From Eudoraea sp. (GTDB lineage Bacteria; Bacteroidota; Bacteroidia; Flavobacteriales; Flavobacteriaceae): 64,000 nt of DNA. Shown here in pieces: positions 47,320 through 61,023 of the stretch (position 1 is the stretch's first letter; each line of letters starts with the position of its first letter). A program made the position numbers and the translations under genes. The notes under the pieces are model-generated. The model was not told the DNA's origin. It saw only the letters and a program-made list of their open reading frames with translations, and searched no databases. The stretch is taken from NCBI GenBank assembly GCA_024639765.1, contig JAHEHU010000001.1, positions 2,800-66,799 on the forward strand. The letters run 5' to 3'.

Positions 47320-49218
47320 ATGAGTGACGCTATTAAGCACGAATGTGGGATCTCCCTCATACGTTTGTTAAAACCATTAGATTTCTATAAAAAGAAATAC
47401 GGTTCAACCTTTTATGGGGTAAACAAAATGTACCTCATGATGGAGAAACAACACAACCGCGGGCAAGACGGTGCGGGTTTTGCGAGTATTAAATTAGATG
47501 TAGCACCCGGACAGCGCTATATGAGCAGAGTACGTTCCGTGCAGTCGCAACCCATTCAGGATATATTTGCTCAGATCAATGACAGGATCAATAGGGCTTT
47601 GCAGGAACATCCGGAATACGTAGATGATGCGGAAGCTCAGAAAAAATATATACCATACATAGGGGAAGTATTGTTAGGCCATGTCCGTTATGGCACATTT
47701 GGAAAGAATAGTATTGAGAATGTTCATCCCTTTCTTAGGCAGAATAACTGGATGCACCGTAATTTGATCGTTGCAGGGAATTTCAATATGACCAATGTTA
47801 CCGAATTATTCGATAATCTCGTGCAACTGGGGCAACATCCAAAAGAACTGGCAGACACAGTTACGGTCATGGAAAAAATAGGCCATTTCCTGGATGATGC
47901 TGTGGCCAAGCTCTATAAACAAATAAAAAAGGAGGGGTATACCAAAATGGAGGCATCTCCTTTGATCGCAGAACGACTTAAAGTTGCGAAAATACTTAGA
48001 AAAGCCGCTAAGAATTGGGACGGTGGTTATGCCATGGCCGGCCTACTTGGTCATGGTGATGCGTTTGTTTTAAGGGATCCTTCGGGGATAAGGCCCGCTT
48101 ATTTTTATAAGGATGATGAAGTGGTGGTGGTAGCATCAGAAAGAGCAGCCATACAAACTGTCTTTAATGTAAAATATGAAGCCGTTAAAGAAATTGACCC
48201 GGCCCATGCACTCATAATTAAGAAGAACGGAAAGGTTTCATTAGAAAAGATCATGGAGCCTCTGGAAAGAAAAGCATGTTCTTTTGAACGCATCTATTTT
48301 TCAAGAGGTAGTGATAAAGAGATCTACCAGGAGAGAAAACAATTAGGTAAACTGATTTTTCCAAAGATCCTGAATGCTATAGACCACGATATAAAGAATA
48401 CGGTATTTTCGTATATACCCAATACGGCCGAAACTTCTTTTTTCGGAATGGTAAAAGAGGCCCAGAATTACCTAAATAAGAAAAAAGAAGATCAGATTCT
48501 GGCCAAAGGTTCAGGTATTTCCAGTGAGGAGCTCCACCAGATCCTTGAGATAAGGCCCCGAATAGAAAAAGTAGCTATCAAAGATGCGAAGCTACGAACC
48601 TTTATCACCCAGGATAGCAGCAGGGATGATCTTGTGGCCCATGTCTATGACATCTCATACGGATCAGTGAATAAAAACGATAACCTGGTCATTATAGATG
48701 ATAGTATCGTTAGAGGAACTACTTTAAAGAACAGTATTTTAGGGATCCTGGACAGGCTAACTCCAAAAAAGATAATCGTAGTTTCTTCGGCACCACAGAT
48801 ACGTTATCCTGATTGTTACGGAATAGACATGGCTAAACTGGAGGACTTCATTGCATTCAAAGCAGCTCTCGAACTACATAAGGAACACAAAAGTCTGCAC
48901 CTGGTTGATGACATTTATAAAAAATGTAAAAACCAAATCCATAAGAAAGACCCGGATATCATAAATCATGTAAAGGAATTTTATGCCCCCTTTACTGCAG
49001 ATCAGATCTCACAGAAAATTGGTGAATTGCTAAGTCCGGCCAATATAAAGGCCGAGGTTAAGATCATTTACCAGTCCATTGAAAATCTGCATGAGGCCTG
49101 TCCTAAGAATTTAGGAGATTGGTACTTTACGGGGAACTACCCTACACCCGGAGGTAATAAAGTAGTAAATAAGGCATTTATTAATTTCTATGAAGGCAAG
49201 AATGAGCGCGCTTATTAA
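47320..49218 (+). CDS. purF: amidophosphoribosyltransferase (long Bacteroidota type)
   Basis: N-terminal nucleophile context HECGI and PRPP loop VIIDDSIVRGTT. Confidence 0.9.
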   Translation: MSDAIKHECGISLIRLLKPLDFYKKKYGSTFYGVNKMYLMMEKQHNRGQDGAGFASIKLDVAPGQRYMSRVRSVQSQPIQDIFAQINDRINRALQEHPEYVDDAEAQKKYIPYIGEVLLGHVRYGTFGKNSIENVHPFLRQNNWMHRNLIVAGNFNMTNVTELFDNLVQLGQHPKELADTVTVMEKIGHFLDDAVAKLYKQIKKEGYTKMEASPLIAERLKVAKILRKAAKNWDGGYAMAGLLGHGDAFVLRDPSGIRPAYFYKDDEVVVVASERAAIQTVFNVKYEAVKEIDPAHALIIKKNGKVSLEKIMEPLERKACSFERIYFSRGSDKEIYQERKQLGKLIFPKILNAIDHDIKNTVFSYIPNTAETSFFGMVKEAQNYLNKKKEDQILAKGSGISSEELHQILEIRPRIEKVAIKDAKLRTFITQDSSRDDLVAHVYDISYGSVNKNDNLVIIDDSIVRGTTLKNSILGILDRLTPKKIIVVSSAPQIRYPDCYGIDMAKLEDFIAFKAALELHKEHKSLHLVDDIYKKCKNQIHKKDPDIINHVKEFYAPFTADQISQKIGELLSPANIKAEVKIIYQSIENLHEACPKNLGDWYFTGNYPTPGGNKVVNKAFINFYEGKNERAY

Positions 49219-49224
49219 CTTAAA

Positions 49225-49260
49225 ATCCGATGAAATGCACAAAAAAGTGCATTTCATCGA
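49225..49260. repeat. perfect 12-bp palindromic hairpin after purF; a related degenerate copy lies at 10175-10236
   Basis: GATGAAATGCAC-AAAAAA-GTGCATTTCATC with no U-tract. It may act as the purF terminator or an mRNA stabiliser. Confidence 0.5.
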
Positions 49261-49320
49261 TAATATCTGCATTTAATCGCCTTTATCGTCTTTCCGGACC
49301 TAAGGAAGTTACATTAGTCT

Positions 49321-49393
49321 TGCCATAGCATAAGTAGGTTAAGTTCATGGTAAGATTTGGGGCAAAAAAGGTGGAGACTTCTCCACCTTTTTT
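49321..49393 (+). ncRNA. candidate small RNA, copy 1 of 3
   Basis: -7-like box TACATTAG (49310-49317), then the 40-nt core CCATAGCATAAGTAGGTTAAGTTCATGGTAAGATTTGGGG. Terminator GGTGGAG-ACTT-CTCCACC plus T6. No ORF. Confidence 0.4.
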
Positions 49394-49586
49394 ATTTGGT
49401 AAAGTAGTTCAAAATGGTCCGAGAGCCTAAAAAAGGACTGTTGGTTGTATTCGGGCTCGTGTTGAGTCGATACCTATAGGAAATTCCTGCCAATGCGTAT
49501 TTCTTGACTTCAAATCCCATTGCGGCCCGCGACTGGCCGACCTATGTCTTGGGTCTTCCCTGAAATCAGTTTTAATGTAGGATTTA

Positions 49587-50138
49587 TTAAAATCGATAGC
49601 CCAGGGTCACTCCCCCTCTGCCAACAAGCTCAGGGGCGTAATCGGTATTCAAAAAGTTTCTTCCTATGCCCAGATAAAGATCAACAACAAAACCGCGTGG
49701 CGTCACAAACTTTGCGCCGACCGAGATTCCTAAAGCAAAGTCGGTGTAACTACCTTCATCAGAATAGGTTACATTGCCATTGGCATCGAATGTTGCAAGA
49801 CCATAAAGCGAATCTCCTGTATTTAACATTCCAAAGCCTTCCACAAAAAAGCCCTTGGCATATTTTCTAGAGAAGTATTGACGATAGTAAGGGGTTAAGG
49901 AAAAGGTACGGTATTCATCAAAGAATTCATCATCAGAAAAACTGAACAGCAGGCTGACCCCAAACGAAGATTCTTCATTGATTAGGTATTCATAGGCACC
50001 ATCCAGATATGAAAATATAATGAGGTTAGTCGCATTAAGCTTTAGTTCGTGTTTATCAATATCGTTGGATATTTCGTCCTGGCTAAAGCCCATGTTTACC
50101 ATAGAAAAGATAGCCAATAGTGCTGCTAGTTTTTTCAT
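49587..50138 (-). CDS. small outer-membrane beta-barrel protein (DUF3575-like)
   Basis: 183 aa with a signal peptide, alternating beta-strand pattern and the C-terminal strand GVTLGYRF. Confidence 0.7.
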   Translation of the reverse strand: MKKLAALLAIFSMVNMGFSQDEISNDIDKHELKLNATNLIIFSYLDGAYEYLINEESSFGVSLLFSFSDDEFFDEYRTFSLTPYYRQYFSRKYAKGFFVEGFGMLNTGDSLYGLATFDANGNVTYSDEGSYTDFALGISVGAKFVTPRGFVVDLYLGIGRNFLNTDYAPELVGRGGVTLGYRF

Positions 50139-50146
50139 TTTTAAAA

Positions 50147-50338
50147 TTAGTTAGTTTTGAGTAACGGCATCAAAAGTAATGCCATGAATTTAATTAGTCC
50201 AACAAACGCACCTAAAAAAAGAATAACCTCATAAACCATTAAAAATAAGCTGTCATAATTAAAAGGCGCTCTACCAAAGAAAACGGAAAAGGAACCATAA
50301 AATTTGTAGTCCAATTCCTTAAGAAACCGACCCAGCAT
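50147..50338 (-). CDS. possible small membrane protein upstream of the barrel gene
   Basis: 63-aa ORF with one TM segment (VILFLGAFVGLIKFMALLLMPLL), ending 8 nt before the next gene. No other support. Confidence 0.3.
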   Translation of the reverse strand: MLGRFLKELDYKFYGSFSVFFGRAPFNYDSLFLMVYEVILFLGAFVGLIKFMALLLMPLLKTN

Positions 50339-50420
50339 TACATAAACGGTATTTCAACCAATTAAAGGGGCGTTTATCCAAAACCTTTTTCCACAGAGAG
50401 CTCTTACTCTATTTTTGGAG

Positions 50421-50492
50421 GACCATAGCATAAGTAGGTTAAGTTCATGGTAAGATTTGGGGAAAAAAGGCAGGATAAATCCTGCCTTTTTT
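50421..50492 (+). ncRNA. candidate small RNA, copy 2 of 3
   Basis: Perfect -7 box TATTTTTG (50410-50417) and a 40-nt core identical to copy 1. The terminator has a different sequence: GGCAGGA-TAAA-TCCTGCC plus T6. Confidence 0.4.
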
Positions 50493-50624
50493 ATTTCTGA
50501 TTATCAAAGAATTAACCCTGACCTGGTACTTTTTATTAATTTTTAGAAGCCTATCTTCTTCATCTCTTGTCCAAAATTTCTTTAATTTTCTTTGTTATTT
50601 CTCACAATACCAGTAATTTAGTGT

Positions 50625-50696
50625 TGCCATAGCATAAGTAGGTTAAGTTTATGGTAAGATTTGGGACGAAAAGGGTGGAGACTTCTCCGCCCTTTT
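50625..50696 (+). ncRNA. candidate small RNA, copy 3 of 3
   Basis: -7-like box TAATTTAG (50614-50621) and a core with 2 substitutions. Terminator GGGTGGAG-ACTT-CTCCGCCC plus T4. Confidence 0.4.
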
Positions 50697-50727
50697 CTAT
50701 TGTAATAATCTTGCCTTTTTAGGAAAT

Positions 50728-50761
50728 AAAAAGCCGCAACGTTTGCACGTTGCGGCTTTTT
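50728..50761 (-). terminator. sodA intrinsic terminator (bidirectional hairpin)
   Basis: GCCGCAACG-TTTGCA-CGTTGCGGC flanked by A5 and T5. Confidence 0.7.
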
Positions 50762-50778
50762 AAATTCTATTTAAATCT

Positions 50779-51387
50779 CTACTTATGCTTGTTGTAATAA
50801 TCAGCAACTTTAGCCCAATTCACCACATTAAAAAAGGAAGCTATATAGTCTGGCCTACGATTTTGATAATTCAAATAGTATGCATGTTCCCACACATCCA
50901 ATCCCATAATAGGCGTACCTCCGCATCCTATTCCGGGCATTAGAGAATTATCCTGGTTATGAGTAGCACAGATCTCAACCTTACCTCCTTTATGCACACA
51001 AAGCCAGGCCCAACCAGAGCCAAACAGAGTTCCCGCGGCATTGCTGAATTTCTCCTTAAAACCATCAAAGGATCCGAAAGCGTTATCAATAGCAGATGCA
51101 AGTTCTCCTGTAGGAGCTCCACCAGCATTAGGCCCCATGATCTCCCAAAACAGAGAGTGATTAAAGTACCCACCGCCATTATTGCGTACTGCCTTATTGT
51201 TCATATCCAATCCTGTTAGGATCTCAACAATTCCTTTGGATGCAAGAGGTGTCCCCTCAATTGCAGCATTCAATTTAGTGGTATATCCGTTGTGATGTTT
51301 TGTATGATGTATTTCCATGGTCCTCGCATCTATAGATGGTTCTAAAGCATCGTATGCATAGGGTAATTTTGGTAGTTCAAAAGCCAT
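50779..51387 (-). CDS. sodA: superoxide dismutase (Mn-type pattern)
   Basis: Motifs [20 protein letters not shown] and DVWEHAYYL. Confidence 0.9.
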
Positions 51388-51491
51388 TATTATTTGTATT
51401 AATAGTTAATATTCAGTGAGGCTCAAAAATAAGGATTTTAACAATTATATTCCTATAATTATATGTTAAGAACGCCGCTAGTTTCCTTATT

Positions 51492-55896: not shown

Positions 55897-55930
55897 CAGC
55901 TAATAAACACTTAAACTTAAAATTTTGAAC

Positions 55931-57289
55931 ATGAAACAGCTTAGCAGATTATTGGTTGTTGGCCTACTTCTAATAGGGTTTAACAACATTCAAGCGCAGG
56001 ATGAAAATAATCCCTGGCAAGTTAGCTTTGGTGTAAACGCAATAGATGTTTATCCTACTAATGACCAAGACGCCGCTTACCCAACAGGTAGTTTATTCAG
56101 TGAGTACTTTAATGTAAACGATCACTGGAATATCTTACCTTCTATTTCCTACGTCTCTGTATCCAAATATGTTGGTGACGGATTCTCAGTAGGAGCCAGA
56201 GGTAGTTTAAACCGTATCTCTAAATTAGGAGACGTTTCGGTAGATGATTTATCTCATTACGCTGTAGATGGAACCATTAAATATAATGTCTTAAAAGACA
56301 AAAAAGTAATCCCATACGTAGAATTCGGTGGAGGTTATACCTGGGTTGATGAAATTGGATTTGGAACTGCTAACGCCGGTATTGGTGCTAGCTACTGGTT
56401 CAATGACAATATTGGTTTTAACGTACAGTCTACGTATAAGCATGCATTTGAAGACTACGGTGTAAAACACTTCCAGCATTCAGCCGGAATTGCTATTAAA
56501 TTTGGTGGAACAGACTCAGACGGAGATGGTATCTATGATAAAGACGATGCCTGTCCAGAAGTTGCTGGTCTAGTTGCTTTCAACGGATGTCCTGATTCTG
56601 ACGGAGATGGTATCGAAGACGGGAAAGATAGCTGTCCTAACGAGGCTGGTTCTAAAGAACTTAACGGATGTCCTGATTCTGACGGAGATGGTATCGCTGA
56701 TAAAGATGATGCTTGTCCTAACGAAGCTGGCTTAGCTGCCCTAGCTGGTTGTCCAGATGCTGACGGAGATGGTGTTGCTGACAAAGATGACGCTTGTCCT
56801 AACGAAGCTGGTCCTGCTGAAAACAAAGGATGCCCATGGCCAGATACAGATGGTGATGGCGTATTAGACAAAGATGATCAGTGTCCAGACGTTGCAGGTA
56901 CTGTAGCTAACAAAGGTTGTCCAGAAGTTACTGAAGAAGTTCAAAAACAATTGAACGATTACGCAAGAACTATCTTGTTCGACACAGGTAAAGCTTCTCT
57001 TAAAACGGAATCTGTTAAAGTATTCGTAGACATTATTAAAATTCTAAACGAATATCCTACTGCTAACTTTACTGTAGAAGGTCACACAGATAGCGTTGGT
57101 AGCGAGAAATTGAACCAATCTCTTTCTGAAAAAAGAGCTAACTCTGTTAGAGACTTCCTAATAGAAGAAGGTATTGGAGCAGATAGATTAACGGCTATTG
57201 GATACGGTGAAGCTAAACCAATCGCTTCTAACAATACAAGAGCCGGAAGAACTCAAAACAGACGTGTTGAGATCAACCTTGTAAAATAA
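55931..57289 (+). CDS. OmpA-family outer membrane protein with thrombospondin type 3 repeats
   Basis: Signal peptide, N-terminal beta-barrel and Asp-rich TSP3 repeats. The C-terminal OmpA domain reads [12 protein letters not shown]...NRRVEI. Confidence 0.9.
56510..56925 (+). repeat. coding tandem TSP3-like calcium-binding repeats
   Basis: Six D-x-D-x-D-G-(I/V)-x-D-x-x-D-x-C-P units ([38 protein letters not shown] ...), with near-identical DNA stretches. Confidence 0.85.

Positions 57290-60946: not shown

Positions 60947-61023
<77 letters not shown>

Follow-up and report, generated by a model that had tools for sequence, protein, structure and literature searches.

Two small RNAs (sRNAs) of Flavobacterium psychrophilum OSU THCO2-90, Rfp13 and Rfp15, are the closest described relatives of the element reported here (Guérin et al., 2021, ISME Commun 1:33; PMC9723704). 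That element is a set of three tandem units on the forward strand of a 64,000-nucleotide stretch of Eudoraea sp. DNA (contig JAHEHU010000001.1, positions 2,800 to 66,799; hereafter the window), each with a promoter-like box, a conserved 40-nt core and a hairpin followed by a T-run. The three units are almost certainly Rfp13-family sRNA genes; the family is already on record, and the genes in the window are new members of it.

In F. psychrophilum, Rfp15 (66 nt) directly follows a 632-aa purF, and Rfp13 (73 nt; CCATTACATAAGTAGGTTAAGTTATGGTAGATTTGGGGCAAAAAAGGCGGAACTTAATAATTCCGCCTTTTTT) is convergent with sodA. The 5' end of Rfp13 was mapped, with 7237 reads, to the A just before CCAT, 5 nt after TACTTTTA and with a SigA promoter motif; Rfp15 also has a mapped primary start site and a SigA motif (PMC9723704). 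Rfp13 is described as an independent transcribed region 'induced under iron depletion'. Its array signal, log2 9.4 in early exponential growth, reaches 17.1 in stationary phase and on agar, with limma contrasts of +5.68 at the transition, +7.09 in stationary phase (about 136-fold), +2.38 with 25 µM dipyridyl (about 5-fold, adjusted P 0.008), +2.2 with NaCl and -1.27 with plasma; sodA changes by +0.32 with dipyridyl, which is not significant (PMC9723704). In the main text of that study, Rfp11, 13, 15 and 18 are presented as conserved and structured, with only Rfp18 studied, and we found no later papers on Rfp13 or Rfp15 in the literature.

Anatomy and family membership of the three units

The core, CCATAGCATAAGTAGGTTAAGTTCATGGTAAGATTTGGGG, occurs twice in the window without mismatch and a third time with two substitutions (C24T and G40A), always on the forward strand (Table 1). 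Matches to the 40-mer arose in 0 of 100 dinucleotide-preserving shuffles, and three copies are not expected by chance. A search with a family hidden Markov model (HMM; nhmmer) scored copies 1, 2 and 3 at 58.9, 56.4 and 53.9 bits and found no fourth copy in the 64-kb window. An earlier note, made from the letters of the window, had already picked out these three same-strand repeats and their substitutions, with start coordinates for the units that lay 2 nt too far upstream.

In every unit a 6-7-nt A-rich spacer separates the core from a 7-8-bp GC hairpin, and a T-run closes the unit. The hairpin arms are GGTGGAG/CTCCACC in copy 1, GGCAGGA/TCCTGCC in copy 2 and GGGTGGAG/CTCCGCCC in copy 3, where one U.G pair bears out the G.U-compatible change that had been noticed there. 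Complete units fold at -22.3, -22.4 and -26.9 kcal/mol (z = -3.1 to -3.9 against shuffles), a good fold that is almost wholly due to the terminator. Upstream, the octamers TACATTAG, TATTTTTG and TAATTTAG do lie, as had been claimed, with their 3' ends exactly 5 nt before CCATAG in all three copies, and transfer of the mapped Rfp13 start site to the window places the likely +1 at the G/A directly before CC (49322, 50422 and 50626). The promoter, start-site and terminator elements of the ~70-nt Rfp13 build all stand at the expected spacing in the three copies, which agrees with the proposal that these are stand-alone promoter-to-terminator sRNA genes of ~71 nt on the forward strand, each with its own -7 box and terminator.

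We reached the link to Rfp13 and Rfp15 through the purF and sodA neighbours given in the supplements of PMC9723704; the neighbours in the window are the same, a 632-aa purF-like gene and a convergent sodA. The window core is that of the Zobellia and Cellulophaga Rfp13 homologues in that study, and the first 46 nt of copy 2 are those of the Zobellia galactanivorans homologue in its Table S9; the CopraRNA input for Rfp13 lists homologues in F. johnsoniae and F. columnare as well as in Cellulophaga algicola and Z. galactanivorans (PMC9723704). The window units align with Rfp13, Rfp15 and the F. johnsoniae homologue. GTAGGTTAA is invariant when the window copies are aligned with Rfp13, Rfp15 and six other Flavobacterium homologues, as is GUAGGUUAA in an alignment of 47 sequences that includes Rfp13 and Rfp15. 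Like these two RNAs, the window units are ~70 nt long and combine an open 5' part, an A-run and a terminator with a sigma-A promoter and a start before CCAT. In F. psychrophilum, however, the two copies lie 43 kb apart and Rfp15 is strongly diverged (PMC9723704), whereas the window holds three near-identical copies in one purF-sodA interval. Flavobacterium copies also have one A fewer (GGUAGAUUU) and a variable CAUAAG, unlike the window copies.

The sequence had been put forward as an unrecognised and possibly new RNA family. A scan of 49200-50800 against Rfam 15 at the gathering threshold indeed matched no family, Flavo-1 and the Bacteroides BTnc sRNAs included, but RNA-seq and 5'-end mapping had already described it as Rfp13/Rfp15, and homologues from Zobellia and Cellulophaga with the same core are listed in PMC9723704; the claim of novelty therefore falls. 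We rejected the sub-threshold Rfam candidates. STnc40, the best of them (33.4 against 45 bits), is terminator-driven and scores on both strands; sraA, matched at E <= 10, is likewise terminator-driven; and FopS (RF04319), at 19.8 and 18.8 bits against a gathering threshold of 56, covers mainly the terminator. As a separate observation, F. psychrophilum has a Flavo-1 RNA motif immediately 5' of sodA (LT670843.1 207187-207266; PMC9723704 Table S3), and neither Flavo-1 nor any other Rfam family was matched upstream of sodA in the window (51388-51491).

Distribution, conservation and array organisation

Family members were collected with an exact 22-nt core pattern in metagenome contigs (at least 120 contigs, mostly marine, often with 2-4 tandem copies) and with a different, overlapping exact 21-nt pattern in species-representative genomes (at least 120 genomes). 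The family is present at no fewer than 240 loci across many genera, and the copy set analysed here comprises 451 copies from 240 loci. Among the matches listed, all named genomes belong to the Flavobacteriaceae, the rest being metagenome-assembled genomes of unclassified Bacteroidota. The genera among these listed matches include Maribacter, Zobellia, Pricia, Flagellimonas/Muricauda, Eudoraea, Robiginitalea, Cellulophaga, Arenibacter, Croceitalea, Kordia, Polaribacter, Joostella and Zhouia, besides Flavobacterium piscis, Candidatus Arcticimaribacter and others; the closest to the window among them is an uncultured Muriicola (purF 91%, SodA 87%).

Across the 451 copies CATAAGTAGGTTAAGTTYATGGTAAGATTTGGG is almost invariant. 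The near-invariant pattern reads A or G, then CC, then ATAGC, AGAAC or TGAAC, then ATAAGTAGGTTAAGTTYATGGTAAGATTTGGG and a final G or A, with an invariant stretch of 33 nt. This near-invariance is not mere ascertainment, because segments that the search patterns did not cover hardly ever deviate either: exact matches occur for CATAAGTAGGTT in 264/267 genome-scan copies, TTTGGG in 172/174 and CATAA in 170/174 of those from the metagenome scan. About 10 diverged paralogues share their loci with canonical copies. Those of loci L037 (5064-5109, reverse strand), L050, L060, L076, L092, L059 (2986-3031), L016 (2089-2124) and L237 (5639-5669) lie in the purF-sodA interval that also contains a canonical copy; ACCATAAACACAATTAGGTTACGTTCTTGGTAAGATTTGGGG is an example. 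Such paralogues can be compared with Rfp15, and their existence shows that not all siblings are held to the canonical sequence.

The 240 loci carry 1-6 copies each, always on one strand; the median distance between copies is 206 nt. In 205 of 224 loci, tblastn placed one or more of the genes that flank the window array beside the copies; purF adjoins the array in most of these loci (189 tblastn matches), and sodA does so in 183 loci. In the recurring layout purF precedes the array, sodA faces it convergently and uvrD lies farther on, and the purF-[sRNA]n-sodA arrangement persists where purF identity has fallen to 58-60% and that of UvrD to ~30%. No copies were found in viral contigs or plasmids.

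Within arrays the order A-B(n)-C is conserved, ABC, ABBC and BBBC being the commonest patterns, and copies 1, 2 and 3 of the window are of types A, B and C. Type A stands first, after purF, with a G start and the -7 box TAnTTTAG; type B, in one or more copies after A, starts with A and has GGAGG or GAAGA after its -7 box; type C closes the array and combines C24U and G40A with its own conserved terminator. Each type has its own conserved upstream region. In type C this conservation spans about -55 to -1 (87 unique copies), with a canonical -33 TTTG, the spacer TTATTTCTCACAATACCAG and the -7 box TAATTTAG. Conservation of this 19-nt spacer across genera (in the window, the 50591-50613 region) is not what one expects between promoter elements and points to an operator or a site for a regulator. 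The Rfp15 promoter of F. psychrophilum has the same ACCAG just before its -7 box.

A match of at least 5/6 to TAnnTTTG lies at -12 to -5 in 330/427 unique copies, and in most of them the RNA, counted from +1 through the T-run, measures 68-72 nt. We analysed the terminator by folding each sequence anchored at the base of the stem; RNAalifold on a MAFFT alignment missed it because the hairpins are out of register. The hairpin reaches -8 kcal/mol or lower in 240 of 245 unique RNAs, among which 219 distinct hairpin sequences and 61 distinct 5' arms occur, and each stem position shows 4-6 types of Watson-Crick or wobble pair. Stems that vary yet stay paired, next to a near-invariant 5' part, indicate that structure is what is conserved in the hairpin and sequence what is conserved in the 5' part, as the earlier note had concluded for the hairpin from three copies. 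Homologues elsewhere thus retain both the hairpin and the -7 box. The CCAT/ATGG stem with a 20-nt loop that the same note proposed at the 5' end found no support: it folds at -4.1 kcal/mol (z = -0.1), 82/200 shuffles fold as well, one double-sided change in 466 cells among 47 diverse members amounts to no covariation, and the 5' side reads CCAG or CCTG in 66/451 copies without a compensating change. As modelled, the 41-nt 5' part is essentially unstructured. The three UAAG motifs of that note are present in the window copies but are not kept in Flavobacterium homologues, where CAUUAG and GGUAGAU stand in their place.

Our study adds to the known family its occurrence at 240 or more loci in many genera, the purF-[sRNA]n-sodA position, the grouping into tandem arrays of one to six copies, the A-B(n)-C order within them, the three promoter classes, the near-invariant 33 nt, a terminator stem that varies freely while remaining paired, and the lack of support for a 5' stem. 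The tandem arrays, their order and the promoter classes are not mentioned in the consulted parts of PMC9723704, where we likewise met no account of the breadth across marine genera, the fixed position, the 33-nt near-invariance or the missing support for a 5' stem.

In the window, the array is interrupted by the 183-aa open reading frame (ORF) between copies 1 and 2. It lies outside the sRNA family and accounts for the 1100-nt gap between these copies; upstream of it, also inside the array, is a 63-aa ORF (50147-50338, reverse strand). Neither has a Pfam or NCBIfam match or a homologue in any of the 240 related loci (by tblastn for the 183-aa ORF), and together they appear to be a lineage-specific local insertion into an otherwise compact array, which left copy 1 on one side and copies 2 and 3 on the other. 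The hairpin between copy 3 and sodA looks like a bidirectional terminator that serves both the array and sodA, and a UvrD-like helicase gene lies beyond sodA. Elsewhere in the window, a tRNA gene (60947-61020, forward strand, 64.3 bits) is the sole Rfam match above threshold. A 454-aa OmpA-family outer-membrane protein (55925-57289, forward strand) contains tandem 27-aa thrombospondin-type-3-like repeats (DSDGDGIxDKDDxCPxxAG; 56513-56836), which account for the 81-nt-period direct-repeat family D1 of a whole-window scan; it looks ordinary for flavobacteria.

Table 1. Features of the sRNA array and its flanks in the window (+1 positions are predicted)
Feature	Position	Strand	Remarks
purF-like amidophosphoribosyltransferase gene, 632 aa	47320..49218	+	Upstream anchor; Pfam GATase domains; TIGR01134 purF match sub-threshold
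Hairpin 3' of the purF-like gene	49227-49260		No T-run on + strand
-7 box, copy 1, TACATTAG	49310..49317	+	5/6 matches to TAnnTTTG; -12 to -5 from putative +1
sRNA gene, copy 1, type A	49322..49393	+	First in array; G start; 72 nt
Parts of copy 1	core 49323-49362; hairpin 49370-49387; T-run 49388-49393	+	A-run between core and hairpin
Hypothetical ORF, 183 aa	49587..50138	-	Between copies 1 and 2; signal-peptide-like N-terminus
-7 box, copy 2, TATTTTTG	50410..50417	+	6/6 matches; T-rich -33 region 50386-50390
sRNA gene, copy 2, type B	50422..50492	+	Middle; A start; 71 nt
Parts of copy 2	core 50423-50462; hairpin 50469-50486; T-run 50487-50492	+	
Promoter, copy 3	50591..50621	+	-33 TTTG 50591-50594; 19-nt spacer TTATTTCTCACAATACCAG; -7 TAATTTAG 50614-50621
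sRNA gene, copy 3, type C	50626..50696	+	Last in array; C24U and G40A; 71 nt
Parts of copy 3	core 50627-50666; hairpin 50673-50692; T-run 50693-50696	+	One U.G pair in hairpin
16-bp hairpin between A and T runs	50727..50762		Between copy 3 and sodA end
Fe/Mn superoxide dismutase gene sodA	50779..51387	-	Downstream anchor; convergent with array
GUAGGUUAAGUUCAUGGUAAGAUUUGGG			Stretch named as probe site for array RNAs

Proposed function and its alternatives

The explanation that we prefer, with a probability of roughly 60% for the whole of it including the base-pairing mode, is that these tandem Rfp13-family genes each give rise to an ~71-nt RNA that acts in trans as a base-pairing regulator. 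Each unit would have a Bacteroidota-type sigma-A promoter to itself, with the G/A in front of CCAT as the first transcribed base, and each transcript would end at its own intrinsic terminator to yield an ~71-nt RNA with an open 41-nt 5' part and a 3' hairpin. The open, G/U-rich, near-invariant 5' region would then pair with several mRNAs near their start codons, and this pairing would alter the translation or stability of those targets. The RNAs have the same build as GibS and FopS of Bacteroides thetaiotaomicron, the sole Bacteroidota sRNAs built in this way that have been characterised (open conserved 5' part, terminator, canonical promoter, paralogues), so a base-pairing regulator is favoured, and by that analogy the 5' region most likely pairs with several mRNAs. 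Judging from the F. psychrophilum orthologue, expression is probably controlled by stress and growth phase. The three promoter classes in their fixed order could feed different signals, together with gene dosage, into one regulator, and classes A, B and C probably allow such integration of signal and dosage.

Several observations weigh against this explanation. The transcript evidence comes from F. psychrophilum only, and the CopraRNA target predictions are heterogeneous and unvalidated, with a ranking led by gliding/adhesin, tRNA-ligase, riboflavin and assorted genes (PMC9723704). Complementarity of the sRNAs to the 67 start regions of the 64-kb window was no better than that of shuffled sRNAs, in a duplexfold search that permitted unrealistic loops; conserved complementarity to the pfkB, purF, sodA and uvrD start regions across loci was not above shuffles, and neither was complementarity to E. 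coli 16S, 23S and 5S rRNA (the window and the collected loci contain no rRNA). We rejected rRNA both as a pairing partner and as the object of mimicry; a possible resemblance concerns the 5' end of 23S rRNA. An invariant stretch of 33 nt exceeds the usual single seed and fits protein binding too. The degree of conservation is itself partly ascertained, loci having been found by exact 21-22-nt patterns, and the Flavobacterium-genus copies and the ~10 divergent paralogues differ from the near-invariant sequence.

A more specific version of base-pairing would make the RNA an iron-sparing regulator of the RyhB/PrrF kind, repressed by Fur under iron-replete conditions and, on starvation, pairing with mRNAs of iron-rich proteins so as to spare the metal. 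RyhB controls sodB in E. coli, and the family always adjoins a superoxide dismutase gene. The dipyridyl response of Rfp13 points the same way, as do feoA, a ferredoxin, an iron ABC permease, fumC and nuoJ in the CopraRNA list (PMC9723704). Yet the stationary-phase rise is far larger and salt induces Rfp13 as well, mRNAs of iron proteins do not lead the CopraRNA ranking, sodA of F. psychrophilum does not respond significantly to dipyridyl (PMC9723704), and conserved complementarity to the sodA start region is lacking. Nor did an unscored comparison by eye reveal any resemblance of the class A, B and C promoters to the Fur box GATAATGATAATCATTATC or the 19-bp Riemerella motif ATTTAGAATTATTCTAAAT, the flavobacterial Fur motif being ill-defined and ATTTAGAATTATTCTAAAT itself a prediction. 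Iron sparing is therefore possible but weak, and we regard it as doubtful. It may instead be that the RNAs act as a decoy or sponge, in which the invariant 33 nt and an internal near-repeat (GGUUAAGUU / GGUAAGAUU) bind an abundant RNA-binding protein, for example of the RRM type, and titrate it in stationary phase. Invariance over 33 nt rather than a short seed and the near-repeat favour this reading; up to 6 copies and very high expression (log2 17.1 in F. psychrophilum) would both suit a stoichiometric mode; searches of the window and of the neighbour genes, and the published CopraRNA predictions, yielded no convincing mRNA target; and RbpB of B. thetaiotaomicron binds single-stranded 5' parts of multicopy sRNAs (PMC11697453). 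However, the protein partner is hypothetical, the near-repeat is altered in the genus Flavobacterium, and FopS, the one studied Bacteroidota case, still acts by base-pairing although it is bound by RbpB (PMC11697453). We consider a sponge unlikely. The broader idea that the 33-nt segment is a platform for a conserved machine or protein, with the tandem three-promoter array as a dosage device titrating that partner in stationary phase or stress, strikes us as decidedly speculative; if true, it would mean CsrB- or 6S-like sequestration in a phylum reported to be without the classical RNA chaperones Hfq and ProQ (PMC11697453).

Two further alternatives deny that these are independent sRNA genes. 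Copy 1 begins 104 nt after the stop codon of the purF-like gene, whose hairpin lacks a T-run on the forward strand, so that purF transcripts may run on to the copy 1 terminator, and a transcribed segment joins purF to Rfp15 in F. psychrophilum (PMC9723704); the units could then be the 3' untranslated region or read-through of purF, or else a cis leader or attenuator of a neighbour. Against this, every copy comes with a separate -7 box at constant spacing, Rfp13 and Rfp15 have the mapped start sites described above, and copies 2 and 3 come after a terminator and an opposite-strand gene. With sodA convergent, there is no gene to lead into; indeed, no forward-strand gene follows any copy in the window, which excludes a leader or riboswitch role. 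We judge this alternative very improbable. High-identity repetition and an ATG inside the core (ATGGTAAGA) might also suggest a DNA repeat of the dispersed or mobile kind (REP- or MITE-like), or else a gene for a small peptide. All copies, however, lie in tandem at one syntenic locus, none of the collected loci (0) has copies on both strands, terminal inverted repeats are absent, and the fixed purF-sodA position together with the lack of viral or plasmid copies speaks against a longer mobile repeat around them. The ATG frame enters the variable hairpin and is shifted by the 1-nt deletion in Flavobacterium homologues; as the frame is not conserved, peptide coding is rejected, in line with the earlier observation that no ORF explains the conservation. 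A repeat or peptide gene can be practically dismissed.

Comparison with other small RNA systems

Flavobacteriaceae are major degraders of marine algal and particulate organic matter, and to our knowledge almost nothing is known of RNA-based regulation in this family of bacteria. The sRNA family described here is notable for expression among the highest in the single species studied, for near-invariance over dozens of genera, and for occupying one fixed locus in up to six copies whose promoter classes are themselves conserved. High expression, near-invariance, a fixed locus and amplification together make it likely that the family is a core regulator by which cells switch to stationary phase or stress. 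It overturns no expectations; rather, it represents a well-defined, probably important regulator in an ecologically dominant, poorly studied group and a natural first target for sRNA genetics in marine flavobacteria. Current annotation pipelines miss the family entirely, and it therefore deserves an Rfam model.

Among sibling sRNAs of other bacteria, LhrC1-4 of Listeria, Qrr1-5 of Vibrio and PrrF1/2 of Pseudomonas are near-identical, each with its own promoter and terminator. They sometimes lie head to tail ~100-200 nt apart, contain a long invariant stretch, and integrate dosage and signals. In this comparison from general knowledge they differ from the window family in that their sequences and phyla are unrelated and they are Hfq-dependent.

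Within the Bacteroidota, IroR of B. thetaiotaomicron is an sRNA induced by iron limitation (bioRxiv 10.1101/2025.09.08.672848). Its 5' hairpin is described as extended and bulged, with another stem-loop and a terminator behind it; IroR is conserved among Bacteroides species and has no evident relation to the window family; none of the Bacteroides sRNA models in Rfam reaches its threshold on the window array. The nearest functional parallel comes from FopS/GibS of B. thetaiotaomicron, which pair next to target start codons and block initiation, modulated by the RRM protein RbpB (Rüttiger et al., 2025; PMC11697453). Like the window family, FopS/GibS (RF04319) are Bacteroidota sRNAs of ~65-70 nt with a canonical -33/-7 promoter, a single-stranded conserved 5' part, an intrinsic terminator and multicopy paralogues. 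The two families nonetheless have no sequence relationship and come from different families of bacteria, and whereas FopS copies are dispersed over 14 loci, also in phage (PMC11697453), those of the window family stand in tandem at one locus, with none in viral contigs.

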